Assembly (NCBI GenBank): GCA_963836185.1
Contig: CAWIIQ010000002.1
Coordinates: 128,001-192,000 of the forward strand
DNA from: Candidatus Krumholzibacteriia bacterium
GTDB lineage: Bacteria; Krumholzibacteriota; Krumholzibacteriia; Krumholzibacteriales; Krumholzibacteriaceae
Length of the DNA stretch: 64,000 nt
Direction of reading: 5' to 3'
This document shows, piece by piece, positions 28,039 through 48,610 of the stretch (its first letter is position 1; each line of letters opens with the position of its first letter). The position numbers and the translations under genes are program-made. The notes below the pieces were generated by a model. That model was not told the DNA's origin and made no database searches. It saw only the letters and a program-made list of their open reading frames with translations.

Positions 28039-28923
28039 ATGCTGAATTTTGCATTCAGACACGGATTCGTCGCTGTTGTCGTCACCACCGCGACCTTCGC
28101 GGGCTTTACCGGCGGCTGGGACGGAACGACCCCCCTGATCATCGATCATACCTGTGCCGACCTCGCCTCGGTCCCGCCTGGATACGTCGATTCAGTAAAG
28201 ACTTACATGAAACTGCACTATGCGCATACCTCGCACGGCAGCCAGCTGACTCACGGAGTGGATACGATCGAGGCGTATGACGCGTTCTACTCGGTCAACA
28301 TCGGCGACAGTTATCTGCCGGATGAATCAGGAGCATTCTGTATATTCAGGGGGCAGGAGGACAGGACGTATATAGAGCCCGAGCAGTACTGGGCCACAGC
28401 GGCGGGCATGAACGATACGCGCGACGTCCTCAATAACAACCCTCAGATCAGAGTATCGATGTTCGCTTGGTGCACCCAGCTCAGCAGCGCCACAGAGGAG
28501 TATGTACAGGCATACCTCGATTCGATGATGCAGCTCGACTCGGAGTTCCCGAACGTGACCTTCGTCTACATGACCGGTAACGCGCAGTCGGCCGGCGCGG
28601 CGGCGAACCGGTACGCGAGAAACCAGCAGATCCGTCAGCACTGCATCGATAACAACAAAGTCCTCTACGACTTCGCCGACCTGGACTGCTGGTGGTTCAA
28701 TCCGGACACCCAGGAGTGGGAATTCAATACGTACACAGATTACTGGGGAGACATCTATCCGCTGCAGCACACGCAGTATGACGGGGACGAGCTCGCGCAC
28801 ACGACGGTGGAGAGCTGCGTGCAGAAAGGCAAGGCGCTCTGGTGGATGATGGCGACGCTGTCGGGCTGGCCGACCGCAGTGGAAGAGAGTTCCTGGGGCT
28901 CGATCAAGCGGAGCTATCGCTGA
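28039..28923 (+). CDS. Secreted protein (SGNH-like motifs) with C-terminal 'SSWGSIKRSYR' tail
   Basis: Signal-like N-terminus; 'YAHTSHGSQL', 'RNQQIRQHC...LYDFADLD', late His; ends PTAVEESSWGSIKRSYR. Confidence 0.65.
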   Translation: MLNFAFRHGFVAVVVTTATFAGFTGGWDGTTPLIIDHTCADLASVPPGYVDSVKTYMKLHYAHTSHGSQLTHGVDTIEAYDAFYSVNIGDSYLPDESGAFCIFRGQEDRTYIEPEQYWATAAGMNDTRDVLNNNPQIRVSMFAWCTQLSSATEEYVQAYLDSMMQLDSEFPNVTFVYMTGNAQSAGAAANRYARNQQIRQHCIDNNKVLYDFADLDCWWFNPDTQEWEFNTYTDYWGDIYPLQHTQYDGDELAHTTVESCVQKGKALWWMMATLSGWPTAVEESSWGSIKRSYR

Positions 28924-34012: not shown

Positions 34013-35893
34013 TTATTCCTGGTCTGTGCCGTATGCGTCACGATTCTTCTCCGCCCACTCCAGCATCCCCTTCCGCGGCCACACGATGATGTAATGGACA
34101 GGCTTGTACTTGCCTTCCATGATGAGCAATGTCCGTTGCGGCGAGTTGGCAGCCGCCAGCCTAAGGTCCTGTTCGCTCGTTCCGATCGGATATACCCTTC
34201 CGCCGTTCTGCTCGGGTATCTGCCTGAGGTGAGCCAGCCCGGGGCTGAGCTCCTCGAGCAGCGGATCGTAGAACCAGCTTCCCCCGATCATTCCCTTTAT
34301 CCGTGGATAGCGTTTCAGGAGATCGGCGATATTGAGGTAGCAGCGGATCCATCCTTCCTTGCTGAAGTTCTTTCTCAGGTACCTCATGTCGAGGTGGATA
34401 CTGTAGAAGGGCTTCAATCCCTTCATCTGCCTGACGGTATAGCTCAGTCCATCGATGAACTGCCCCACCCCGCCCGTGAACAGGAACTTGCTTCCGATCC
34501 CCGATTCTTCCACGAGGAACCCGACGGGGACCAGTCTAAGGCTGCAGACGGCCAGGTCCTTGCAGAACCGGTCTTTCCTGTAGTCGTAAAACTCATCCTC
34601 CATCAGGCCGAAATCTTCGATGATCCTCTCGAACCATTCGCCGTACAGCTTGTTGATCTTCTCCGGAAGACCCATGTTTTCCAGGATGGGGATCGAGTCC
34701 CTGATAAAATGCGCCATCGCCGTCTTCTGATACAGGGCGATGCCCCTGATCCCGCAGGATGCTTCAATATCATCAAACGCCGCCACAAGTTTCGGGCTGG
34801 TGTTCCGGTAGAAGTGTCGCCGCCTGTACGATCTCACTATCCCGGAGTATCGCTCGATCGGGTATTTCCGGAGGACATCCGGGGTGATCCGCAGGAGTTC
34901 CCCTTCGAGGGTTCCGATCGCCTCTTCGGCCCTGGCAGCGATGCCCGCCATCTCCGGAGTCGTCTTCCTGTATTTGTCCGCCCACGCTATCAGATCTTTC
35001 CTGTTCCACAGCATCATGTGGCCGGTCGGTCTGTACTTTCCCTCTTCGTACAATCTTTTTCTCGTCGGAGACTTCAACGTCGAGAGCCTTATGTCCCTCG
35101 CGCTGGAACCGGTCTTGAAGAATCGCGCGCGGCGCTTCTCGGGGCGTTCCCTGAGATAGGCCAGTCTCGGGCTGATCCTGCTGATCTCCGGATCATAGAA
35201 CCAGCTGACGGCGAATAACCCCTTGATCCGCGGATTGGCCTTCAGCATCTCGGCGACCCTGACAAAACAACGGTCACGTCCATCTGAGTTGAATTTGTCC
35301 AGATACCGCATATCCATATGTATGCCGTAGAAGGGGTGGAATCCCCTCGTTCCGATCACTGTTCGGTACATATAGCAGAAGAATTGCTTTATCCCGCCCG
35401 ACAGGAAATGTCTTCTGCTCAGGCCGGCTATCTCTGTCAGTTCACACCCGACCGGGGTCATACGCATGCTGCAGACCCCGAGGTCCTTGCAGAAGAAATC
35501 CTGCTCGTGATCATAGAACTCGTCCGGCTGTTTCGAGAAATCATCCACGATCCTCTCGAACCATTCGTAATAAAGCCCGGTGATATCGGCGGAGAAACTC
35601 GTAGAGGGAAGCCTGTCGATCGTCCTCTTGATAAAGGAAGCGAGGGCCAGCTTGTGATAGAGGGTGATGCCGGGCTGGCCGTATTCGGCCCTGATGCTCT
35701 CAAAGGCCGCCGTCAGCCTGAAGGGGAAATCCCTGTACAGGTACAGTTCGGGGAGCGACTCGATCTCATCTATATACATCTCGATGGGGAATTTCGTGAG
35801 AAAGTTCTCATCGAGCCTTTCGAGGCCCTCTTTAAACGAATCTATCCGGCTGTCGACAAGGGCTTCAGTCAGCATCAAAGGCTCCAGACGCAA
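34013..35893 (-). CDS. Hypothetical protein built from two tandem homologous ~300-aa domains (possibly GNAT-like acyltransferase)
   Basis: Repeated 'EWFERIxxDF...DEFYD...FCKDLxVCS', 'PFYxIHxDMRYL', 'PRIKG....SWFYDP...SPxLAxLRxxPE', 'EGKYxP' in both halves. Confidence 0.7.
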   Translation of the reverse strand: MRLEPLMLTEALVDSRIDSFKEGLERLDENFLTKFPIEMYIDEIESLPELYLYRDFPFRLTAAFESIRAEYGQPGITLYHKLALASFIKRTIDRLPSTSFSADITGLYYEWFERIVDDFSKQPDEFYDHEQDFFCKDLGVCSMRMTPVGCELTEIAGLSRRHFLSGGIKQFFCYMYRTVIGTRGFHPFYGIHMDMRYLDKFNSDGRDRCFVRVAEMLKANPRIKGLFAVSWFYDPEISRISPRLAYLRERPEKRRARFFKTGSSARDIRLSTLKSPTRKRLYEEGKYRPTGHMMLWNRKDLIAWADKYRKTTPEMAGIAARAEEAIGTLEGELLRITPDVLRKYPIERYSGIVRSYRRRHFYRNTSPKLVAAFDDIEASCGIRGIALYQKTAMAHFIRDSIPILENMGLPEKINKLYGEWFERIIEDFGLMEDEFYDYRKDRFCKDLAVCSLRLVPVGFLVEESGIGSKFLFTGGVGQFIDGLSYTVRQMKGLKPFYSIHLDMRYLRKNFSKEGWIRCYLNIADLLKRYPRIKGMIGGSWFYDPLLEELSPGLAHLRQIPEQNGGRVYPIGTSEQDLRLAAANSPQRTLLIMEGKYKPVHYIIVWPRKGMLEWAEKNRDAYGTDQE

Positions 35894-38038: not shown

Positions 38039-39166
38039 ATGAATGACAGCCGATTACCGATAAGAGTGATGTTTGTCGTGCCGTGCTTCGGGTACGGGGG
38101 CCTCGAGCAGGTCATCCTGAACATCGTGAGGGACCTGGACCGCTCGAGGTTTACGCCTTCGTTCTGCTCCCTTGTCGTTCCTGAGCCTGGCCTGTTCGAA
38201 GATCTTAAGGCACTCGACCTCGGATGCCACATCATCGAGAAGGGCGACGGCATAAAGCCTTCCCTGCCGCTGAAGCTCGGCAGGCTTTTCAGGGCCGAGC
38301 GGATAGACATCATAAATGCCCATGATATCGGCGCTACGATATATGCGGCGCCCGCTGCCCGGCTCGCCCGGACCCCCGCGTTCATCCACACCGATCACAG
38401 CCAGATCCTGGCGAAAACGAAATACCCAGGCGTCTACAGATGGATATGGAAGAACCTCGTCGATTACTCGATAACAGTCTCGGAGGATCTTGAGCGGCAC
38501 CTGGTCTCGAGGTACGGGGTGGATTCCGGCCTGGTACGCACAATACCGAACGGGATCGATACCGGCCGGTTCGCCGGCGGCGGAGGCACCGGCGAACTGC
38601 GGAAAGAACTCGGGATAAGCGAGGGGGACAGGGTGATAGGGACGATAGGGAGGTTGATGAGGCAGAAAGGGATGCCTTACCTGCTCGAGGCCTTCAGAAT
38701 ACTGCGGCAGGGAGCTTCCGATACGACACTGGTCATCGTGGGAGACGGCGAGGAGAGGGCCGGCCTCGAGCAGCGCGCCCGGGAACTCGGCATAAGCGAC
38801 AAGGTCGTCTTCGCGGGGATCCGCAGGGATATTCCCGATCTTCTCGCGATGTTCGACATCTTCACCCTCGCGTCGTTATGGGAGGGGCAGCCGATCACGA
38901 TCATGGAGGCGATGGCCGCGGGAAGGCCGATCGTCGCGACAGACGCGGGAGGCAGCGCGGAGGTCCTCGACGACGGAAGGTGCGGCATCATCGTGCCGGT
39001 CAAGGATCCCGGGGCCCTGGCCGGATCGATCCGGTCTCTCCTCGACGATCCGGAACTCGCGGGCAGGTTCGGCGAGCGGGCCCGGGAGCGCGCGGAGGCC
39101 GAGCTCAGCTCTGCCGCGATGACGAGGAAGTATGAAGATGTCTTCGGATCTGTCCACGGCAGGTGA
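38039..39166 (+). CDS. GT4-family glycosyltransferase
   Basis: 'GGLEQV', 'IPNGID', 'IGRLMRQKG', 'SLWEGQPITIMEAMAAG'. Confidence 0.92.
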   Translation: MNDSRLPIRVMFVVPCFGYGGLEQVILNIVRDLDRSRFTPSFCSLVVPEPGLFEDLKALDLGCHIIEKGDGIKPSLPLKLGRLFRAERIDIINAHDIGATIYAAPAARLARTPAFIHTDHSQILAKTKYPGVYRWIWKNLVDYSITVSEDLERHLVSRYGVDSGLVRTIPNGIDTGRFAGGGGTGELRKELGISEGDRVIGTIGRLMRQKGMPYLLEAFRILRQGASDTTLVIVGDGEERAGLEQRARELGISDKVVFAGIRRDIPDLLAMFDIFTLASLWEGQPITIMEAMAAGRPIVATDAGGSAEVLDDGRCGIIVPVKDPGALAGSIRSLLDDPELAGRFGERARERAEAELSSAAMTRKYEDVFGSVHGR

Positions 39167-39184
39167 GGGAAAAAAGACTGGACA

Positions 39185-39200
39185 GGGTACGTAAGTTGCA
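39185..39200 (+). promoter_or_regulatory. Candidate sigma54 promoter for the kinase-RtcB operon
   Basis: GGGTACGTAAGTTGCA (GG-N10-GC; compare consensus TGGCACG-N4-TTGCW), 55 bp upstream of 39256. Confidence 0.55.
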
Positions 39201-39255
39201 TAAGATGGTCGATAATAGGAAGTTAATAGGGATTGTAGAGTAATCGACTACGACC

Positions 39256-40323
39256 ATGGATGATATTCACATCAAGCTGGGCTCGTTGCCCGTCCGGATA
39301 AGTTCAGACGACGGGGACTTTCTCGAGTATACCCTCAGCCATTTTGCGCCCGTGACGATCGATCCGCCTGCACGGTGCGCCGTCGAGGCGCGCTTCACCC
39401 GGGGCCCCTGCGAAGAGGAGCAGACCGCGCTTGCCCGGTACGACCGGATCGGCAGGGGGATCTACACCGATGGAAAGACTGTGATCTGGAACACGGTCCC
39501 GTATTTCCCCGCGATGACGATGAGCTTCCTGTTCGAGGGAGAGACGCTGGCCGTCAGGGCGTATCAGAATACTTCCGGATCGATGAAAAGCACGGTGAAG
39601 AATCTCGTCAGAGCGATCTACGGCCAGTCGGAGAGCAGGAGCGTCTTCTATTTCGAGCTGCTCTACTATCTCGTCTACTACCCGGTGTTCCGGATGCTTT
39701 CCGACAGGGGGATCCATGCTCTTCACGGCGGCGGGATAGAGGCGCGCGAGAAGCGCATCGTGGTGGTGGGGGCACAGGGAACAGGCAAGTCGACGCTCAT
39801 AGCCAACCTGCTCGCCGGGTCCGGTTCGCGTTTCCTCTCCGACAACATCATCCTTTTCGACAGCAGGAGGGTGTATTCATGTCATGAGCCGGTACGCCTC
39901 GATACAGGCATGCTGGATAATGATCCCCTGCTGAGGGAGATGGTGTCGAAGATCGACCTGGATGTGCCTCTAGGGCGGACGGCTGGAAATGTCCGCCGGG
40001 AATCGTATATCGAGTCGATGGAGCCGGATATATTCATCATACCGAGGATAACCCGGTCGGCGACATCGCTCGAACCGTGCACGAAAGAGGATGTAGTCCG
40101 AAAGGCATTGTATTTCAACAGTCTTGCCGACGAGGTAAGATCCTTCGATATATTCGCCTCGGTCCTCGGGCAGGTCTTTCCCCCGAAGCTGCCTCCCTGC
40201 AGCGGGGCAGAGGCCCTCAGCGCGCTTCTTGAGGGCAGGGAGTTATACGAACTCGGCATCGGATACGGTGAGGATCCCGGGGTGACCGCGCGTGCCTTCA
40301 TCGAGAGTGTGACCAATGAGTGA
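39256..40323 (+). CDS. HPr-kinase-related P-loop kinase
   Basis: 'LHGGGI', Walker A 'GAQGTGKST', then 'FLSDN' matching the HprK acidic motif. Confidence 0.7.
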   Translation: MDDIHIKLGSLPVRISSDDGDFLEYTLSHFAPVTIDPPARCAVEARFTRGPCEEEQTALARYDRIGRGIYTDGKTVIWNTVPYFPAMTMSFLFEGETLAVRAYQNTSGSMKSTVKNLVRAIYGQSESRSVFYFELLYYLVYYPVFRMLSDRGIHALHGGGIEAREKRIVVVGAQGTGKSTLIANLLAGSGSRFLSDNIILFDSRRVYSCHEPVRLDTGMLDNDPLLREMVSKIDLDVPLGRTAGNVRRESYIESMEPDIFIIPRITRSATSLEPCTKEDVVRKALYFNSLADEVRSFDIFASVLGQVFPPKLPPCSGAEALSALLEGRELYELGIGYGEDPGVTARAFIESVTNE

Positions 40324-41746
40324 TGACAAGATAAAGCTGCTCTTTGACGAGTCCTTCGATCCCGACGAGAGGCTGATCGCCTCGCTGAAGGATATAGCCG
40401 GTATCGACGACGTGCATATGGTAGTCGGCATGGTCGACCTGCACCTGAAGAAGAATACGGAGAATCCCTCGAGCGTCGCTATCGCGACGCGCGAGAGGCT
40501 CATCCCCAAGCTTTCAAGCGTGGCCCAGAACTGCGGGATGGCGATCGCGGCGACAAATCTCACGACGGGCGATGCCGGGGTGGAGAGGCTGGAGGAGCTC
40601 TTCGGCAGGATGAGGGCCGAGGATGACACGCTTATGCGGCACCCGGGGATGAGCGTCGAGGATATGAGAAGGGCCGCGTGCCTCGGAGCGCCCTGGGCGG
40701 CGGAAAAGGCGGGGCTCCCCGTTGATTTCCCGGAAAATATCGAGTTCGGGGGAGCCGTCGGCAGGACCGATCTGCTTTCGTGGAAGGAGCTCGGGAAACT
40801 GGTCCCGCGTTATTCCCTCGATCGCGGAAGGTACGGGTTCGGGGTGATTCCGGCCGGCAACCATTTCCTGGAGATACAGGCGGTGGACGAAGTGATCGAC
40901 GGGGAAGAATGCGAAAGGCATGGTATCCGCGAGAACGGGATCATGATAATGATCCATTCCGATGGAGGCCTCATATCAGACGATATAGGAAACCTGTACG
41001 GGAACCGGACGACCGCGAAGGGATACATCAGGGCTCTTTATAACGTAAGGAAGACGGCCCTGCATCTTCGCGACTGGCGGGGGGTGGAGAACTGGAAGGA
41101 AAAGAAGGAGTATTACTTCGGCGCTGGCAGGTATATCCAGATCTCCCCAGGGACGGATGAGGGGAAGCGGTTCCTCAAGGCGAAGGACCTTTCGATGAAT
41201 GCCGGGTATGCTTCGAGAGTGACTACGATGGGAAGGGTGAAGAGGCTCATGGGAGAGGTCTTCCCCGAGGGGCCGTTCGATATGCGACTGCTCTGCGATT
41301 TTTCACATAATTCTATTTTCCGCGAGACGATCGACGGCAGCCCCGTGTGGGTGCACCGTCACAACGCGTGCAGAGTCGTAGAAGGACAGCTCGTATTTCT
41401 GCCCGGATACAGTAATACATCTTCGTATATCTGCGCAGGTTCTTCCGGCGCCCGCGATTTCCTCAACACTATGGATCACGGGGCCGGGAAGACGATAGAC
41501 CGGTTGAAGAAGAAGGGACTCGTGCGTGAGCTCGGAAACGGACGCGTCACGAGGAGCTACAACAATGAGTCACCGGAACCGAAACAGGTCCCTCATGTGT
41601 CCGACGAAGGCATAGACGCGGTTATCGAATCACTGGGCCGTAACGATATCGTGAGGCCTGTCGCGAGGCTGAGGCCCATGGCCGGTTACCGCTATCTCTG
41701 GAAGGGCCGGCTGGCACGGGCACGAGAGAAGATAACGGCCGGCTAG
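40316..41746 (+). CDS. Divergent RtcB-family (GTP-dependent ligase-like) protein
   Basis: RtcB motifs in the expected order: 'VDLH', 'NCGM' (C73), 'GNHFLEIQ' (H183), 'IHSD' (H214), 'SHN' (H331), 'WVHRHNA', 'LPG', 'DHGAG' (H388), 'ARLRP'. Confidence 0.85.
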   Translation: MSDDKIKLLFDESFDPDERLIASLKDIAGIDDVHMVVGMVDLHLKKNTENPSSVAIATRERLIPKLSSVAQNCGMAIAATNLTTGDAGVERLEELFGRMRAEDDTLMRHPGMSVEDMRRAACLGAPWAAEKAGLPVDFPENIEFGGAVGRTDLLSWKELGKLVPRYSLDRGRYGFGVIPAGNHFLEIQAVDEVIDGEECERHGIRENGIMIMIHSDGGLISDDIGNLYGNRTTAKGYIRALYNVRKTALHLRDWRGVENWKEKKEYYFGAGRYIQISPGTDEGKRFLKAKDLSMNAGYASRVTTMGRVKRLMGEVFPEGPFDMRLLCDFSHNSIFRETIDGSPVWVHRHNACRVVEGQLVFLPGYSNTSSYICAGSSGARDFLNTMDHGAGKTIDRLKKKGLVRELGNGRVTRSYNNESPEPKQVPHVSDEGIDAVIESLGRNDIVRPVARLRPMAGYRYLWKGRLARAREKITAG

Positions 41747-41758
41747 GGCGCTGTAAGG

Positions 41759-42397
41759 GTGTTGTTGCGGACTATGAACCAGACTGGCGGCGGCGAATAT
41801 AAACTGCTCTTTCTCCTGCCCGTTTTCCCTGACACAGGCAGGGTCCTCCTGCTCGACATCGGATCAGACAGCCTGGAGCGGCGGCTCTCCGCAATGGGGA
41901 TAGAATGCCGCACGGGAAGCGTTGATGACGTGTCGCGGGATGACGCCGGCGCAGGCAGGTTCGATTTGATCGTCGCAGGCAGGATGCCGTCGGGCCGCCG
42001 GGCCATGGATATGTTCAAGCGATCGGTCGGCGGCCTTCTTACAGGTACCGGCTGGCTGGTCGTCGTCTCGCCGAACAGGTTCGGATACTCGAGGCTGGCG
42101 GGCAGAGGCGGGGGCGGCGCTGGCAGCTCGCTCGGCGCGATGCGGGGAATGGTTAGAAAGATGGGATTTACCGACATCCACATATATTCTCCGGTCCCGG
42201 ATACGGCCAATCCATCGGCCTTCATCTCGCTTTACGGATCGAATTCGCTCGAGTTCCTTCTCGGGCAGTTTCCCGATTTTATCTCGGCCCGGTCGGGCCC
42301 CGTAAGGGGTATCCTGTCGTTATTGATACGGACCGGCATATTCAGGTACGTCCAGAATTACTACGCGATAGTCGCCGGCGGGCGGGAACAGGTGTAA
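41759..42397 (+). CDS. Class I SAM-methyltransferase-like protein (degenerate motif I)
   Basis: 'LLLDIGS', 'FDLIV', 'LLTGTGWLVVVSPNRFGY', 'MGFTDI'. The start may be the ATG at 41774. Confidence 0.55.
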   Translation: MLLRTMNQTGGGEYKLLFLLPVFPDTGRVLLLDIGSDSLERRLSAMGIECRTGSVDDVSRDDAGAGRFDLIVAGRMPSGRRAMDMFKRSVGGLLTGTGWLVVVSPNRFGYSRLAGRGGGGAGSSLGAMRGMVRKMGFTDIHIYSPVPDTANPSAFISLYGSNSLEFLLGQFPDFISARSGPVRGILSLLIRTGIFRYVQNYYAIVAGGREQV

Positions 42398-42411
42398 GAA
42401 ACAGGATCCGC

Positions 42412-43416
42412 ATGTTGTTCTATCTGAAAAATATGATCGCCGAACGCCTCGGTATCCGCGACACCGATGAAGCTGTGGTGACGAGGGTAGAGGCAGGCAC
42501 AAAAGCGGTCCTCTTCTTCTTCCTCGAGAGGGGAAGCATCGTGCCGTCTATCGTAGTCAAGGCGGCAAGCGATCCCCGTTTCAATGATGAGCTGCGCGGT
42601 GAAAGTGCGAACCTAGGATACCTCAGGGATATACTTTCAGATGGCCTGGGCGGCGGCGTTCCCGCAGTCGAGGCCGACGGGGAATGGATGGGGCTGTACT
42701 ACTACGCCCAGCGTTATTTTCCCGGTGTCATGCTCGACGAGACGATCGACGACGTCGAGCCTTCCGGGGAGGGGACTGGTCCCGGGAGGGGATTACGGGC
42801 CGCCTGGCGGTGGCTTGATGATTTCCAGGAAGCGACGGCGTCGGAGCCGGTCATGCTCGGCCGGTCCGGTCTCGATATCTTGTTCGGCTCGTACAGGGAA
42901 GCCTTCGCCCCGGAAGGGGACGAAGCGGCATATCTCGGCAGTCTCGAGAAGAGGCTGGCGGACCGCCATGAAGGGGAGACAGGCATGTCCGCCTGTCACG
43001 GGGACTTCTTTCCCGGGAATATCATCCTGTCCGGCGACCGGGTGACCGTGATCGACTGGCGGTTCCTGCGCAGGTCGTACAACCGGTTCTTCGATTTCTT
43101 CACCCTGCTCCTGACGTTTTACGCGTCCGAGGGTGGAGTGACCGACTATGATGATCACGAGGGGCATTTCAGGAGACTTTTCTTCGAGAAGCACTGGACC
43201 AACGATCTGTTCTCCGGTCTCTGCCGCGAGTTCCTGGAACGAAACGGGACCGATGCCGGACTGTTCGGACTGATGCTTGAACTGACCCTTCTCGAGTGGT
43301 CCGTCAGGGAGTTCAGATCCAGCGGAACGACAGGGGAGATGGACATCATCTGGCGCACGAGATTCCTGTACCACATGAATAACAGGGATCGCTTCATCCT
43401 CGGGAGCGTGGAGTAG
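42412..43416 (+). CDS. Aminoglycoside-phosphotransferase/choline-kinase-like small-molecule kinase
   Basis: 'IVVK', Brenner motif 'CHGDFFPGNII', 'VIDW'. Confidence 0.8.
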   Translation: MLFYLKNMIAERLGIRDTDEAVVTRVEAGTKAVLFFFLERGSIVPSIVVKAASDPRFNDELRGESANLGYLRDILSDGLGGGVPAVEADGEWMGLYYYAQRYFPGVMLDETIDDVEPSGEGTGPGRGLRAAWRWLDDFQEATASEPVMLGRSGLDILFGSYREAFAPEGDEAAYLGSLEKRLADRHEGETGMSACHGDFFPGNIILSGDRVTVIDWRFLRRSYNRFFDFFTLLLTFYASEGGVTDYDDHEGHFRRLFFEKHWTNDLFSGLCREFLERNGTDAGLFGLMLELTLLEWSVREFRSSGTTGEMDIIWRTRFLYHMNNRDRFILGSVE

Positions 43417-43419
43417 GCG

Positions 43420-45537
43420 ATGTCGAATGCGCGGAAAAAGATACGTATTTTCTCACCCCGGGAGATTGCTTTCAGGCTTTCCGAGAAGGTGCGTTTCCGC
43501 CGGGAGAGACGAGGGAAGAGGCCGCAGGTCGAGATCACGCGGGAATACCACGGCCTGAAGGACAGGTTTATACCCGTGGGGCTGTTTCCGTTCACGGGAG
43601 AGAAGGAATCGGTATGCGGCATGTGGCGCGAGGTTTTCCCCGGATCGGCAGAGGGAGAGATCGCTCTCGCTGACGGTATTCTGGAGAACCGTATTCCCGT
43701 CTTTTCGGAAAAGGTCGACTATGGCGACAGGGTGGACTGGCACCTTGATCCGGTCTCCGGGACGAGGTCGCCCGTGGTCTTCTACCGCGACATAGATACC
43801 TTCGATACATCGGTGGCGGGAGATCCCAAGCGTATCTGGGAACTCAACAGGCACGATTTCTTCATCCATCTCGGGAAGGCATACTGGATAAACGGCGATG
43901 TCAGGTATTTTGATAAATGGCGCGAATTGATCGTGTCGTGGGTGGAGGAGAACCCGTACCACATGGGGATCAACTGGGAGAGCAGCCTCGAGATGGCGTT
44001 CAGGTCGATCAACTGGATATGGTCGTCGTACTTCTTCGCGGACCGGCTGGAGGCCGACAGAGAGCTCCAGGAGCTGATTTTCGAGACTTTGTACCTGCAG
44101 GCGGACCATATCAGCAATCACCTCTCGTATTTTTTCAGTCCCAACACCCATCTGACAGGGGAGGCGCTGGGGCTCCTCTACATCGGCAGGGTGTATCCCG
44201 CGATGAAGCCCGCTGCCGCCTGGGTCTCGACGGCGGTCGATATCCTCGAAACGGAACTCGAAAAGCATATCCTCGAGGATGGCGGATATTTCGAGATGGC
44301 GACCTACTATCACAGGTACACGATCGATTTCTACCTGCATTTCTTTCTTCTTTCGGGCGGGGTCGACGGCCCGGGCCTGAAGAGGAGAGAGTATTTGAAG
44401 AAGATGGTCCGTCACCTCGTCCTTCTCTCGGAACCTGACGGGACTATTCCCCTGCTGGGCGATTCAGACGGCGGCCGGCTGCTGATGCTCGATGACCTGA
44501 AACGAAATGTCAGTGGCGCATGCTGCAGCGCGGCTGTGATACTGGGAGACGGTGAGCTCAAGTCGCTCTGCGGCTCCAGGTTCAGCGAGGAGACGATGTG
44601 GCTCCTCGGAACGGGGAGCAGGGAGAGGTTCGATGGACTGGCTGCCAGGCCGCCGGTACATTTCCATTCGATCAATGACAGTACGGGCCTGTACTGCTTC
44701 AGGAGCGGGATGACGGAGGATGACTCGTACACCCTGATCGACTGCGGTCCGCACGGCTGGAAGGGATGTGGGCACGCGCATGCCGACCTGCTCAGTTTCA
44801 TATGGTACAGCGGGGGGGAGATGGTACTGACCGATCCCGGCACCTTCACATATACAGGATCGCGGAGTATCCGCGATCAGTCCCGCAGCAGCTTGAGCCA
44901 CAACACCATCTCGGTCAACGGGCGCTCGCAGTCCGTTCCGGGAGAGCCGTTCAGGTGGAAGAGCGTCGCTGCCCCGAAATATGCCCGTGTCAGGGTAGAC
45001 AGGGAGTGCGGGAGGTTCGAGGGAGAGCACGACGCCTGGGAGGAGTTCGGCTGCGGCCACAGGAGATCGCTCTACTTCCTCGGCTCCTCCCTGACCGTGG
45101 TGATCGACGAGCTCAGCGTCTCCGGGCCGCTCGATTCGATCCTGTATAACCTGCAGTTCGGCGACGGGAAACTGAGCGAACTCAGCGGCGGCATTTTCAG
45201 GTTCGATGGAAAAGGGAGCGGCGGGAGCCGGTACGTAAGGATAATCGCCGGAGAAAAGGTCAGGGTCGACATCCGCGAGGGAGCGTTCTATCCTGACTAC
45301 GGGAAGAGGGTAGCGGCGCCGAGGCTCGAAGTGACAGCAGACCGCATCACCGAAGACCTGATGATCGTCACGCTGCTGAGCCCTGATGAGGAACTGGCCG
45401 GCAGTTTCCGGTGGAAGGATGGCCGCCGGATGGAAGGGTCCTCGCGGGCGGGCAGCTACATGCTGGAGTGCCGCGACAGAGAGATAATAGCTTTCAGGGA
45501 CGGAGAACAGGTTCTGCCTGGAAAGGTGCAGGCGTGA
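43420..45537 (+). CDS. Heparinase II/III-like protein
   Basis: 'DPKRIWELNRH', 'GINWESSLEMAFR', 'SPNTHLTGEA', 'GDSDGG', 'GHAHADLLS', 'DPGTFTY', 'HNT'. Confidence 0.9.
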   Translation: MSNARKKIRIFSPREIAFRLSEKVRFRRERRGKRPQVEITREYHGLKDRFIPVGLFPFTGEKESVCGMWREVFPGSAEGEIALADGILENRIPVFSEKVDYGDRVDWHLDPVSGTRSPVVFYRDIDTFDTSVAGDPKRIWELNRHDFFIHLGKAYWINGDVRYFDKWRELIVSWVEENPYHMGINWESSLEMAFRSINWIWSSYFFADRLEADRELQELIFETLYLQADHISNHLSYFFSPNTHLTGEALGLLYIGRVYPAMKPAAAWVSTAVDILETELEKHILEDGGYFEMATYYHRYTIDFYLHFFLLSGGVDGPGLKRREYLKKMVRHLVLLSEPDGTIPLLGDSDGGRLLMLDDLKRNVSGACCSAAVILGDGELKSLCGSRFSEETMWLLGTGSRERFDGLAARPPVHFHSINDSTGLYCFRSGMTEDDSYTLIDCGPHGWKGCGHAHADLLSFIWYSGGEMVLTDPGTFTYTGSRSIRDQSRSSLSHNTISVNGRSQSVPGEPFRWKSVAAPKYARVRVDRECGRFEGEHDAWEEFGCGHRRSLYFLGSSLTVVIDELSVSGPLDSILYNLQFGDGKLSELSGGIFRFDGKGSGGSRYVRIIAGEKVRVDIREGAFYPDYGKRVAAPRLEVTADRITEDLMIVTLLSPDEELAGSFRWKDGRRMEGSSRAGSYMLECRDREIIAFRDGEQVLPGKVQA

Positions 45538-46646
45538 CGGTATCCGGCAGCGCGCAGACAGAGAACTATCCCGTACGGGAGGGATCCTCGCCGATGACCG
45601 GCCTGTACCTCTTCATCAAGAGGTCGTTCTACCGGGTCTGCAAGTGCCTCGGCCTGTTCAGCCTTGCCCGGCGCCGTGCGAGAGGAAAGCTCAGGATAAT
45701 AACCTACCACGGATTTTCGCTCGTCGACGAGAGCCGGTTCCTTCCGCGGACATTCATCGATCCTGCGACCTTCCACGAGCGTATGGCGCTGTTGAAGAGG
45801 AAAGGATTCAGCGTCCTCGGTCTGGAGGAGGCGCTCGGCCTGCTCTACGGCGGCGAGCTGCCGGCTGATCCGGTCGTTATCACTATCGACGATGGTTTCT
45901 ACAGCACATGGCGCGCCGCCTGGCCGGTCCTCAGGGAATTCTCCTATCCTGCGACCGTCTACGTGACTTCGTACTACGCGGTAAAAGAAAATCCCATATT
46001 CGGGCTCGCTGTCGATTACATATTCTGGAAGACCGACAGGACGGAATTCGATTCCGACGGCCTGGGACTGCCCTTCGGCGGCGTAATCCCGATCCGGGAT
46101 ACCCGTGAAAGATCTCTCGCCGCCAGGGATGTGATCTTCTTCGGCGAGAAGAGCCTGAGCGAGGAGGAACGGGTGGCCCTTTCGGAGAGGCTCGGAGAGA
46201 GGCTCGGGGTGGACTATTACGGGGCCCTCGCAGAGAGCCGGATACTGAGCATCATGAATGCCGGCGAGATCGGTGAACTTTCGAGGGCCGGCATCGACAT
46301 CGAGCTTCACACACATCGCCATGATATCGGCACGCGACGGGAGGACGCCGTGCGGGAGATAGGTGAATGCCGCGCCGTGCTCGAGCCCATCACCGGCAGG
46401 AAGCTGGAGCATTTCTGTTTTCCCGGCGGCCGGTGGTCCGGGAGCCATCAGGCGTGGCTCGAGGAACTAGGCATCCGGAGCGCCGCGACGTGCGACAGGG
46501 GACTGAACGATCGATCGACGTCGAGGTTCGGGCTCAAGCGTTTCGGTGACGACGCGGCCCTGTCGCGGATCGAATTCGAGGCAGAACTTTACGGTTTCGC
46601 GGAGGCCATAAGGTCCATCCAGGCCCGGCTGCGCCGGGGCAGCTGA
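45534..46646 (+). CDS. Polysaccharide deacetylase (CE4-like)
   Basis: 'IITYHG', 'VVITIDDG', 'ELHTHRH', 'FCFPGG'. The GTG start at 45534 overlaps the upstream stop. Confidence 0.88.
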   Translation: MTVSGSAQTENYPVREGSSPMTGLYLFIKRSFYRVCKCLGLFSLARRRARGKLRIITYHGFSLVDESRFLPRTFIDPATFHERMALLKRKGFSVLGLEEALGLLYGGELPADPVVITIDDGFYSTWRAAWPVLREFSYPATVYVTSYYAVKENPIFGLAVDYIFWKTDRTEFDSDGLGLPFGGVIPIRDTRERSLAARDVIFFGEKSLSEEERVALSERLGERLGVDYYGALAESRILSIMNAGEIGELSRAGIDIELHTHRHDIGTRREDAVREIGECRAVLEPITGRKLEHFCFPGGRWSGSHQAWLEELGIRSAATCDRGLNDRSTSRFGLKRFGDDAALSRIEFEAELYGFAEAIRSIQARLRRGS

Positions 46647-46696: not shown

Positions 46697-46745
46697 TGTC
46701 TGATATTTATTGCGGAGAAACAGGAAATCGGTCCGGGGGAGAACC

Positions 46746-48610
46746 ATGTGCGGCATATTCGGGATATATAGCCTGGACGGGCGCGGCGTCGATGAGCGGG
46801 AATCGGCGCGCATGCTCGATTTGCTGTCTCACAGGGGGCCCGACGGGAAAGGGACCTTCTGCGATGATCGAGTATTCCTCGGGCACGCGAGACTCAGCAT
46901 CATAGATGTCGAGGGAGGCAGCCAGCCGATCTTCAGCGAGGACGGGAACATCGCCATAGTCGGGAACGGCGAGATCTACAATCACGAGGAACTGCGGCGC
47001 GGCCTGATCAGCAGGGGGCACACTTTCAAGACGCGTTCCGATATCGAAGTGCTCGTTCACCTCTACGAAGAGGAGAAGGAGGGTTTTCTCGACAAGCTCA
47101 ACGGGATGTTCGCTTTCGCCATCTACGACAGGAGGGCGGGCGAGCTCTTCATCGCGCGTGACAGGATAGGGATCAAGCCGCTTTACTACTATTATGACGG
47201 CGGCAGACTGATCTTTTCATCCGAGATGAAGGCGATCATCAAGTCGGGACTTATCCCTCTCGAGGTAAACGATACCGTCGTATACCAGTTTCTCACGCTT
47301 CATTTTTCCGTGCCTCCTGATACCCTGATCAAGGGGATCCAGTCGCTGAGACCGGGTCATTACATCTTCGCCGGACGCGGGGAGCCGCAGCAGAAGCAGT
47401 ACTGGGATATCAGCCCCGACCCGGACGAACCGCCCCTGCCTCCCGCGGAGTCACTCCGGGAAGTCGAATCGCTTCTGATCGATTCGGTCGAGAAGAGACT
47501 GATGAGCGACGTGCCCCTCGGGCTTTATCTCAGCGGCGGGATAGACTCGAGCCTCATCGCCGCGCTGATGCACAATATGGTAGGCGACGGGATAAAGACC
47601 TTCTCTATCGGTTACCGCGAAAAGGAATACTCTGAGCTGCCCTGGGCGAAAAAGGTCAGCGAGATGATCTCCTCCGACCATACGGAAGTCATCGTCTCTC
47701 CTGACGAGATAAAGCACAATATCGAGGATGTCATATGGTACCGCGAGACACCGATCTCCGAGCCCGCTGATATCCCGATATTCATGCTCAGCCGGGCCGC
47801 GGCGAAGAAGGTCAAGGTCGTCCTTACCGGGGAGGGGGGGACGAGGTATTCGCAGGATACCACAAGTATGTCTTCGAGGACTGGGCGCGCAAAGCGGCGC
47901 TACTGAGGAATCCAGCCGCACGGGCGATGCTGATGAATCCCATGGCGCAGAAGATGTTTCCGCAGAGGATCAATACAGCCCTCGATCTCTTTTCGGAGAA
48001 GGACAGGTTTCGAAGGTACTACAGGTGGTTCAGCTATTTCAGGGACGAGGAGCTGCGCGGCATGGTCAAGCCCGGGAGGGCCGGATTCGTGTCGGGAAGG
48101 AACTTCTACAGGGAGATAGCTGGGGACAGGAGATTCAGGAACGGCCTCGACGAGATGCAGTATCTCGATGTCAAGGTATGGCTGCCCGATAACCTCCTTC
48201 TCAGGGGAGACAGGATGTCGATGGCTTCCGGCCTGGAGGCTCGTGTGCCCTTTCTCGATCACAGGCTCGTCGAGCTGAGCTATCGCCTCGGCATGTCGAT
48301 GAAGGTGAGGAAAAATTCAGGCAAGTACGTCATAAAGAAGATCGCCGAGAAATATCTTGATAAGGAAATAATCTACCGGAAAAAGGTTGGTTTCGCCGTG
48401 CCGGTCAGCGACTGGCTGCGGACCGACCTGAGGGATTTTCTGCAGGATCATCTGACGCGGAGCAATTCGTTCAGCGGAGGGATCTTCAGGAAAGAGAGTA
48501 TTGAGACGATGATCGACGACCATGCGTCAGGCAGGATGGACAACCACAAGAAGCTGTGGATCCTTCTTAACCTTGAGCTTTGGTACGACCAGTTCATCGG
48601 CGGCGCGTAA
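46746..48610 (+). pseudogene. asnB: Asparagine synthase (glutamine-hydrolysing)-family amidotransferase, -1 frameshift in the G7 run at 47834-47840
   Basis: MCGI N-terminus, 'HRGPD', 'RLSIID', 'NGEIYN', 'LSGGIDSS'. Adding one G restores 'LTGEGGDEVFAGY' and joins the downstream 'DRMSMASGLEARVPFLD...KVGF' frame. Confidence 0.9.

Follow-up and report, generated by a model that had tools for sequence, protein, structure and literature searches.

A divergent RtcB-fold enzyme and an HprK-fold kinase-like partner form a conserved pair in surface-glycan loci and may make up a GTP-driven route to glycan phosphodiesters

Within 64,000 nucleotides of DNA from a Candidatus Krumholzibacteriia bacterium (assembly GCA_963836185.1, contig CAWIIQ010000002.1, positions 128,001 to 192,000 of the forward strand; the whole stretch is called the window hereafter), we analysed a run of six co-oriented open reading frames (ORFs) on the + strand that includes a divergent member of the RtcB family. 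An earlier note, made from the letters alone, had described six tightly spaced genes flanked by a GT4 gene and by asnB and glycosyltransferase (GT) genes, and all of them lie where it had placed them, including an 8-nt overlap between the first two and gaps of 12, 14 and 3 nt following the RtcB-like gene:

38039..39166, + strand: GT4 glycosyltransferase (best match TIGR03088-type), upstream of the six-gene run
39179..39206, + strand: sigma70-type promoter-like site (TGGACA-16 nt-TAAGAT, with an A-tract upstream), overlapping a sigma54 site proposed in the earlier note
39256..40323, + strand: HprK/PEPCK-fold P-loop kinase-like protein, 355 aa (weak TIGR04352 HprK-related match, E 3e-7)
40316..41746, + strand: divergent RtcB-fold enzyme, 476 aa (PF01139, about 146-147 bits), overlapping the kinase gene by 8 nt
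41477..41479, + strand: codon of H388, the predicted histidine carrier of a nucleoside monophosphate (NMP); His in 116/116 clade rows and 20/20 canonical rows
41759..42397, + strand: degenerate methyltransferase-like ORF, positioned before the APH-fold kinase gene
42412..43416, + strand: APH/choline-kinase-fold kinase (APH PF01636, E 4e-10)
43420..45537, + strand: heparinase II/III-like protein (Hepar_II_III N and C matches); accessory
45594..46646, + strand: CE4 polysaccharide deacetylase (Polysacc_deac_1; probable start ATG at 45594, longest frame from GTG at 45411); accessory
46710..48610, + strand: asnB-type amidotransferase in two frames (frameshift near 47834-47840); a GT gene also lies downstream of the six-gene run

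The surroundings are a surface-glycan region encoding Wzx, Wzy-type, GT2, GT4, WbuX-type amidotransferase and acetyltransferase proteins, and none of the six cassette proteins contains a long hydrophobic stretch. Pfam and NCBIfam bear out the family assignments made in the earlier note for the RtcB, APH, heparinase II/III and CE4 proteins, and a weak profile match together with the fold does so for the HprK-like protein, while the methyltransferase-like protein has no family match. RNA-repair partners, noted before as missing from the window, are indeed absent from the 41 + 21 window ORFs scanned. The six genes form a co-oriented run, but they are not a conserved unit, as the earlier note's operon would have it: the heparinase-like and CE4 genes are present in close relatives only, and the conserved core is the HprK-fold kinase gene plus the RtcB-like gene.

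The genome, which is 92.5% complete, holds two PF01139 matches: the one at this locus and a canonical RtcB of 513 bits on another contig, with an archease gene directly upstream; the two copies share 25% identity. The AlphaFold model of the RtcB-like protein (predicted local distance difference test, pLDDT, 90.7) finds RtcB structures as its only fold matches (Foldseek E 4e-29; VIA Z 33-38, the best being Z 38 with a root-mean-square deviation, rmsd, of 2.7 over 386 residues). A protein search gave 409 relatives among 7998 candidates scored, and the best 120 of the 409 were examined. The RtcB phylogeny that had been proposed as a check places the window protein in a clade separate from the canonical RNA ligases: a 138-row tree separates 118 rows of the clade from 20 canonical ones with support of 1.0, and in a 65-row tree with wider representatives, from which the diagnostic columns had been removed, the clade has support of 98 and comprises a core 'EPSS' subgroup (99), which includes the window protein, and a basal 'PTG' subgroup (89), which is represented by four of the loci studied. 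Among 144 new representatives at the 50% level, 87 have Lys45 (window numbering) and lack Asp95 and Arg238 (Pyrococcus, Pho, numbering, used below for canonical positions), 15 have the canonical Asp95 and Arg238, and the remainder are partial or mixed. Source labels of clade members name Polarisedimenticolia/Acidobacteriota, Chloroflexota and Nocardioides. In the window's own phylum 8 of 208 genomes carry a clade member and the 6 others of the same genus carry the canonical copy only, the kind of patchy spread that an accessory glycan gene shows. No clade member turned up in the 401 genomes searched of a second phylum, where 29 matches were obtained at 1e-40 and the 25 examined were all canonical; a contig search with the RtcB-like protein alone returned one weak and unrelated locus, and plasmids gave only weak matches to the RtcB-like protein (none more than 30.5% identical to a clade member) and none to the kinase.

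A metagenome scan confirmed 439 matches, and we determined the neighbourhoods of the best 80 of these, many of them on short contigs, with neighbour profiles built from the clade's own loci. The kinase family was found in 42 of the 80 loci, GT4 in 37, the APH subfamily in 26, a 4,6-dehydratase in 39, DegT in 28 and Wzy/Wzx in 24. When at least 3 kb was available on each side the kinase was present in 17/18 loci, and when both flanks were 5 kb or longer (15 loci, hereafter the long loci) the counts were 15/15 for the kinase, 15/15 for GT4, 12/15 for the APH kinase subfamily and 10/15 for Wzy/Wzx; de-duplication at 90% left nine loci with 9/9, 9/9, 7/9 and 5/9, respectively. Archease, RtcA and RtcR were found in 0/80 clade loci, and no TROVE or release-factor families occurred among the 67 + 53 cluster representatives and singletons scanned (of 572 called genes). 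By comparison, archease accompanied 11/22 canonical RtcB loci taken at 1.5 kb and 8/16 taken at about 8 kb (the 16 from genomes of the second phylum; 19/38 in all) and RtcA 0/22 and 3/16 (3/38), whereas the seven glycan-locus profiles matched beside canonical RtcB in 0/38 loci, a contrast that is somewhat favoured by the clade-derived profiles. The neighbourhood check proposed earlier thus returned kinase and glycan genes and no RNA-repair partners: the clade serves varied biosynthetic loci, none of them for RNA repair, and the HprK-fold partner and the RtcB-like protein make up a two-gene unit that is conserved in surface-glycan loci.

Gene order varies by lineage, yet the pair persists. The two genes are adjacent in the window type and in the Polarisedimenticolia-like type, and a GT4 or Wzz gene often lies between them in the high-GC Wzy loci. 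Distances between kinases are correlated with those between the RtcB-like proteins (rho 0.63 over 17 loci, among which kin are not independent). In the own phylum the kinase is adjacent in 6/8 clade-bearing genomes, and of the 7 genomes with a strong kinase match, 6 have it adjoining the RtcB-like gene. The kinase gene of genome G070 (L115:9028-10132) matches in two pieces beside an intact RtcB-like gene. A histidine phosphatase gene lies between GT4 and kinase at L118:2727-3341, reminiscent of the kinase/phosphatase/nucleotidyltransferase heptose routes, and two further families recur in the high-GC Wzy loci, a metallo-beta-lactamase/SCP2/Rieske protein (Rv3818-like; L052:16921-18534 and relatives) and an unannotated family of secreted type (cluster 11).

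The association also occurs within single polypeptides. P0132 (885 aa) and P0197 (755 aa), from different subgroups, are clean kinase-RtcB-like fusions, and P0172 joins a Wzx flippase to an RtcB-like domain; each of these three is a single database sequence, for any one of which an assembly error is possible. P0272 joins the kinase to a GT4. Two other candidates, P0238 and P0273, were set aside because they look like products of read-through, and searches for longer RtcB proteins also returned intein RtcBs and one frameshift read-through.

Residues were counted over 116 clade rows and 20 canonical rows, with the basal members L119 and L120 tallied apart. Equivalents of Cys98, Asn202, His203, Phe204, His234, His329, Ser385 and His404 are kept in 116/116 clade rows and those of Asp65, Glu206 and Asn330 in 115/116, and the window protein retains D41, C73, N182, H183, F184, E186, H214, H331, N332, S370 and H388. 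The Mn1 ligands and the nucleophile are intact (C73, H214, H331 and H388 in 116/116; D41, the Asp65 equivalent, in 115/116), H388, singled out in the earlier note, being aligned with the His404 nucleophile. The Mn2 ligand set, in contrast, is broken: Cys98 and His203 are invariant, but Asp95, present in 20/20 canonical rows, is A70 in the window protein and Ser in 96, Ala in 18, Gly in 1 and Asp in 1 of the 116 clade rows. In six clade members (P0172, P0167, P0191, P0213, P0243 and P0265, from two subgroups) Asp replaces the bridging Cys98 in an NDG/NDA motif. Asp95, Cys98 and His203 hold a metal on the beta and gamma phosphates of GTP (PMC9745838), and in human RTCB the leaving phosphate is bound by D119, N354 and K375 (PMC10944509). 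The clade has largely lost the residues that contact the 5'-OH strand, namely Arg238, Arg190, Gln194 and His242 (PMC8051266): the Arg238 equivalent is kept in 0/116 versus 20/20 canonical rows (G218 in the window protein), Arg190 in 22/116 versus 19/20 (R170) and His242 in 28/116 versus 19/20 (D222), and Gln194, present in 19/20 canonical rows, is not among the five commonest residues at its position in the clade (G174). Lys351 has become His in 116/116 (H349) and Tyr451 Asp in 111/116 (D430), whereas Arg408 (37/116), Arg412 (50/116) and Lys480 (48/116; R459) are variable, so that the guanine pocket keeps its Phe204, Glu206 and Ser385 equivalents and is changed at the Tyr451 and Lys480 positions. 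K45, E49, S52, S53, R231, H349, N350 and H427 are new near-invariants of the clade.

Archease-dependent RtcB enzymes (P. horikoshii PH1602, T. thermophilus TTHA1785 and human RTCB) thus share with the clade a common fold, the Cys/His ligands, the His nucleophile and part of the guanine pocket, but clade members are only 20-25% identical to them, lack Asp95, Arg238, Lys351 and Tyr451, have KxxxExPSS in place of the GYGFPIGG loop and HRHN in place of HRKG, carry an insertion of ~25 residues with the invariant Arg231, have no archease, RtcA or RtcR nearby and occur as kinase or flippase fusions. Substitutions fixed across the clade around an invariant nucleophile are best read as those of an active enzyme whose phosphate and acceptor subsites have been rebuilt, K45 and E49 being candidates for compensating the loss of Asp95, and the loss of the RNA-strand contacts supports the non-RNA reading first suggested in the earlier note. 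Global charge, considered as a sign of lost RNA binding, was dropped, since it does not differ from that of canonical RtcB.

The model of the HprK-fold partner (pLDDT 91.8) matches PEPCK, and no closer kinase, in Foldseek (E 9e-9, TM about 0.48), and its profile matches HprK (E 4e-6). Its invariants are H157, GxxGxGK(S/T) at 172-179, N197, E211 and E293; the equivalents of HprK His140, the Walker A motif and Glu204 are kept, but Asp179, the proton acceptor of HprK (PMC9399212), is Asn in 33/33 rows, giving DN for DD, whereas the 10 distant HprK-like proteins compared and the genome's own HprK, encoded elsewhere, have DD or DE. The protein may therefore phosphorylate a group that is already anionic, or it may be an ATP-driven activator. 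Among 11 regions fetched around distant HprK-like kinases of the own phylum, five (L153, L156, L158, L161 and L163) have an NTP_transf_5 neighbour; several of the five also have PqqD, ABC and transglutaminase-like genes, and no lasso cyclase was seen among the genes scanned. Together with PsmK/PsmN of pseudomycoidin, in which an HprK-type kinase and a nucleotidyltransferase yield a phosphate-linked hexose on a lasso peptide (PMC6993621), these neighbours indicate that pairing with a nucleotidyltransferase recurs in the HprK-like superfamily. The present unit is alike in pairing an HprK-fold kinase with a nucleotidyltransferase-type enzyme, but differs from PsmK/PsmN and from the TIGR04352 plus NTP_transf_5 cassettes in that no RRE/PqqD, B2 protease or precursor was seen, the partner has the RtcB fold and the kinase has DN, not DD. 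A predicted complex of the kinase with the RtcB-like protein scored 0.00 and gives no answer on pairing.

The motifs of the APH-fold kinase (K50, E64, HGD-x3-GN at 196-203 and DW at 215-216) are intact in 19/19 rows. The ORF before it has no Pfam, NCBIfam or Protein Data Bank (PDB) match and no GxGxG visible in its alignment, and its language-model look-alikes at 0.86-0.89 carry Methyltransf families; the high-GC loci have an ORF of 135-150 residues in the same place, whose similarity to it is weak (profile score 15.6, E 0.15; the highest score among 20 shuffles was 11.8). From these sequence features the methyltransferase-like protein is probably not an active methyltransferase and probably a helper of the APH-fold kinase. 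WbdD, the methyltransferase-kinase terminator of O-antigen, offers a likeness in that a methyltransferase-like gene directly precedes an ePK/APH-fold kinase gene in a glycan locus, but here the genes are separate, with no recognisable S-adenosylmethionine (SAM) motif and no sequence match to solved structures.

We consider it likely that the clade carries out nucleotidyl chemistry on something other than RNA in glycan synthesis, that is, forms a His-NMP intermediate and moves the NMP onto a phosphate. That the enzyme also seals the phosphodiester itself on a sugar substrate, completing the route below, is plausible but somewhat short of an even call. In the cytoplasm a cassette kinase would phosphorylate either a small substituent or a glycan intermediate carried on a lipid; the APH-fold kinase could provide this LicA-like step, and the HprK-fold protein could add a second phosphorylation or activate its RtcB-like partner in place of archease. 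H388 would take an NMP, probably GMP, from a nucleoside triphosphate (NTP), the NMP would be moved onto the substrate phosphate, and a glycan hydroxyl would then attack with departure of the NMP, so that a single enzyme would cover the steps of both LicC and LicD; the decorated unit would be exported by Wzx/Wzy or an ABC transporter. Sealing is the parsimonious reading because no LicD-type transferase was seen and because the flippase fusion indicates a lipid-linked substrate: LicD had no match in the own genome, and no LicD, Stealth, TagF or cytidylyltransferase families were found in the set of locus proteins that was scanned (the genome as a whole was not searched for LicC). Put in full, we tentatively propose a GTP-driven, CDP-independent glycan phosphodiester ligase that would act through His-GMP on a lipid-linked acceptor and would form a new enzyme class spread over at least three phyla. 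For the GTP-dependent phosphodiester system sketched in the earlier note, the proposed checks of a separate clade and of a kinase and glycan context came out in favour, while the six-gene unit and the sigma54 promoter were not supported.

Several observations weigh against this proposal, beside the tilt that clade-derived profiles give to the comparison with canonical loci. As Asp95 is missing in 115/116 rows, GMP transfer and sealing would need a compensating change, and the E. coli D75A mutation reportedly cripples guanylyl transfer to the 3'-phosphate. The changes at Tyr451 and Lys480 mean that GTP is not assured as the nucleotide, the Asn at Asp179 means that the HprK-fold partner may not be an alcohol kinase, and the net charge of the clade does not differ from that of canonical RtcB (+3.2 versus +3.1). 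The pairing has exceptions too: genome G003, the seventh of those with a strong kinase match, has the kinase fused to a GT4 and no RtcB-like gene within 19 kb or in a genome-wide search; the basal members L119 and L120 have methyltransferases and a B12 radical SAM enzyme or WbuX as neighbours and no kinase; and loci L006, L007 and L018 carry GT1 and isoprenoid genes with no GT4 match. The G003 fusion lies at L152:8523-10877, in a locus syntenic with L117 minus the RtcB-like gene. The basal members (L119:6065-14089 and L120:5744-10515) lie downstream of methyltransferase genes and possibly represent another non-RNA use of the RtcB fold. L006, L007 and L018 also carry Wzx, with GT1 and a methyltransferase in L006 and L007; the L006 operon (L006:3-9994) comprises GT1, kinase, methyltransferase, Wzx, DXP synthase, an FMN dehydrogenase/IDI-like gene and a radical SAM/SPASM enzyme, and is perhaps a glycolipid pathway.

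The alternative that comes closest behind, although we rate it as rather unlikely, is that the pair stops at activation: kinase and RtcB-like enzyme would be a salvage-type synthase of nucleoside diphosphate (NDP) donors, and the neighbouring GT4 or GT1 would use the X-pp-N product. Precedents are fucokinase/GDP-fucose pyrophosphorylase, HldE and HddA/HddC, and the kinase-RtcB-like fusions resemble the bifunctional kinase/nucleotidyltransferase design. This alternative fits the mutant data best. D95A PhoRtcB is inactive, and archease restores guanylylation of the RNA 3'-phosphate but not ligation (PMC3973293), human RTCB D119A guanylylates only weakly and fails to ligate (PMC10944509), and in E. 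coli R189A sealing is 200-fold slower but capping 3-fold slower (PMC8051266); the corresponding Asp and Arg losses are fixed in the clade, and that of Asp95 suits an enzyme that stops at activation no less than one that seals, another point against our proposal. Capping to DNA 3'-ppG by E. coli RtcB and of 5'-phosphates by M. xanthus RtcB3 (PMC10630183, PMC8051266) shows that RtcB can stop at X-ppG, although those enzymes are canonical and their substrates nucleic acids. Arg238, however, is relevant to an RNA acceptor alone. The presence of a GT4 in 15/15 long loci would suit donor synthesis, and a single clade for the window-type and high-GC-type GT4s is not rejected (p-AU 0.59), but the linked GT4s fall into five groups on the free tree, the kinase of G003 is fused to an orthologous GT4 without any RtcB-like gene, and the P0172 fusion again points to a lipid-linked substrate.

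It is improbable that the donor is an NDP-sugar and not an NTP, with either a ping-pong His-NMP exchange of the GalT/VTC2 type or direct, LicD/Stealth-like transfer of sugar-1-phosphate. The clade's losses fall in the gamma-phosphate/pyrophosphate subsite (PMC9745838, PMC10944509), two of the three human leaving-phosphate ligands being changed (A70 and H349; the mapping of K375 is inferred from the alignment), and archease does not accompany the clade, but Cys98 and His203, which belong to that metal site, do not vary and the obligate ATP-binding partner would be left unexplained. Still less probable is a PsmK/PsmN-like reaction that would join glycan to a peptide or protein bearing a phosphate. 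Genes for secreted beta-helix proteins often lie nearby, and the distant HprK-like kinases with NTP_transf_5 in 5/11 regions often have PqqD and transglutaminase-like genes; however, no PqqD, transglutaminase or NTP_transf_5 family was found among the clade-locus proteins scanned, and the distant kinases have DD/DE where the cassette kinase has DN.

That the protein remains a nucleic-acid ligase or capping enzyme within glycan loci is very unlikely. The close fit of the fold (Z 38), the retention of Asn202, an Arg one position past Arg238 in 34/116 rows, Arg412 in 50/116, the Arg408 and Tyr/Phe451 of much of the basal subclade and the unchanged net charge would all suit such an activity, but RNA-repair partners are absent from all 80 loci, the RNA-strand contacts are lost, kinase and flippase fusions occur and the same genome has a canonical copy; for glycan-nucleic acid conjugation, raised earlier as the more speculative option, we found nothing in support. 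A scaffold, or a one-metal phosphohydrolase or phosphotransferase that needs no nucleotide and might, for instance, open a cyclic phosphate carried by a sugar, would suit the intact Mn1 ligands and the lost Mn2 Asp, and E. coli D75A is said still to hydrolyse 2',3'-cyclic phosphate, but this too is very unlikely, as 115-116 of 116 rows retain the residues that act in forming His-GMP and in binding the base, namely the equivalents of His404, Asp65, Phe204, Glu206 and Ser385.

In phosphocholine decoration by LicA, LicC and LicD the substituent is phosphorylated, activated and transferred. The phosphodiester route proposed here would share this logic, and with it an APH-fold kinase in a glycan locus, but activation and transfer would use an unrelated fold through His-NMP, and the genome has no LicD match. 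Literature searches found no published account of a glycan-locus RtcB clade, although supplements to comparative-genomics studies could list it, and the clade with its kinase unit appears to be a real, conserved and undescribed system. The RtcB activities described in the cited papers are all on RNA or DNA. Should the proposal hold, an RtcB acting on something other than nucleic acids would add a new class of enzyme to glycan decoration or NDP-donor synthesis and would account for phosphate-linked glycans where LicD-type transferases are missing, and the database name 'RNA-splicing ligase RtcB', borne by many among the best 120 of the 409 relatives, would need correction. The natural variant without Asp95 would be a test of the two-metal RtcB mechanism and of the role of archease, and the enzyme a possible tool for joining phosphomonoesters to hydroxyls.

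Upstream of the run, at 39185, lies the sigma54-like motif to which the earlier note had assigned the six genes. With two mismatches it is one of 37 such matches, where 36.9 are expected by chance, and it is not conserved in the relatives compared. The genome does encode sigma54. We dropped the sigma54 promoter in favour of the overlapping sigma70-type site, which is echoed upstream of the kinase gene in 3/4 aligned relatives. Elsewhere in the window, a 294-aa protein without a family match that is probably secreted (28039-28923, + strand) precedes a WbuX-type gene, and in the glycan region a 626-aa protein without a Pfam or NCBIfam match (34013-35893, - strand) consists of two 43%-identical copies of one domain. 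The asnB frameshift sits at a run of seven G, in a gene that is intact in relatives, and reflects either a sequencing error or phase variation.

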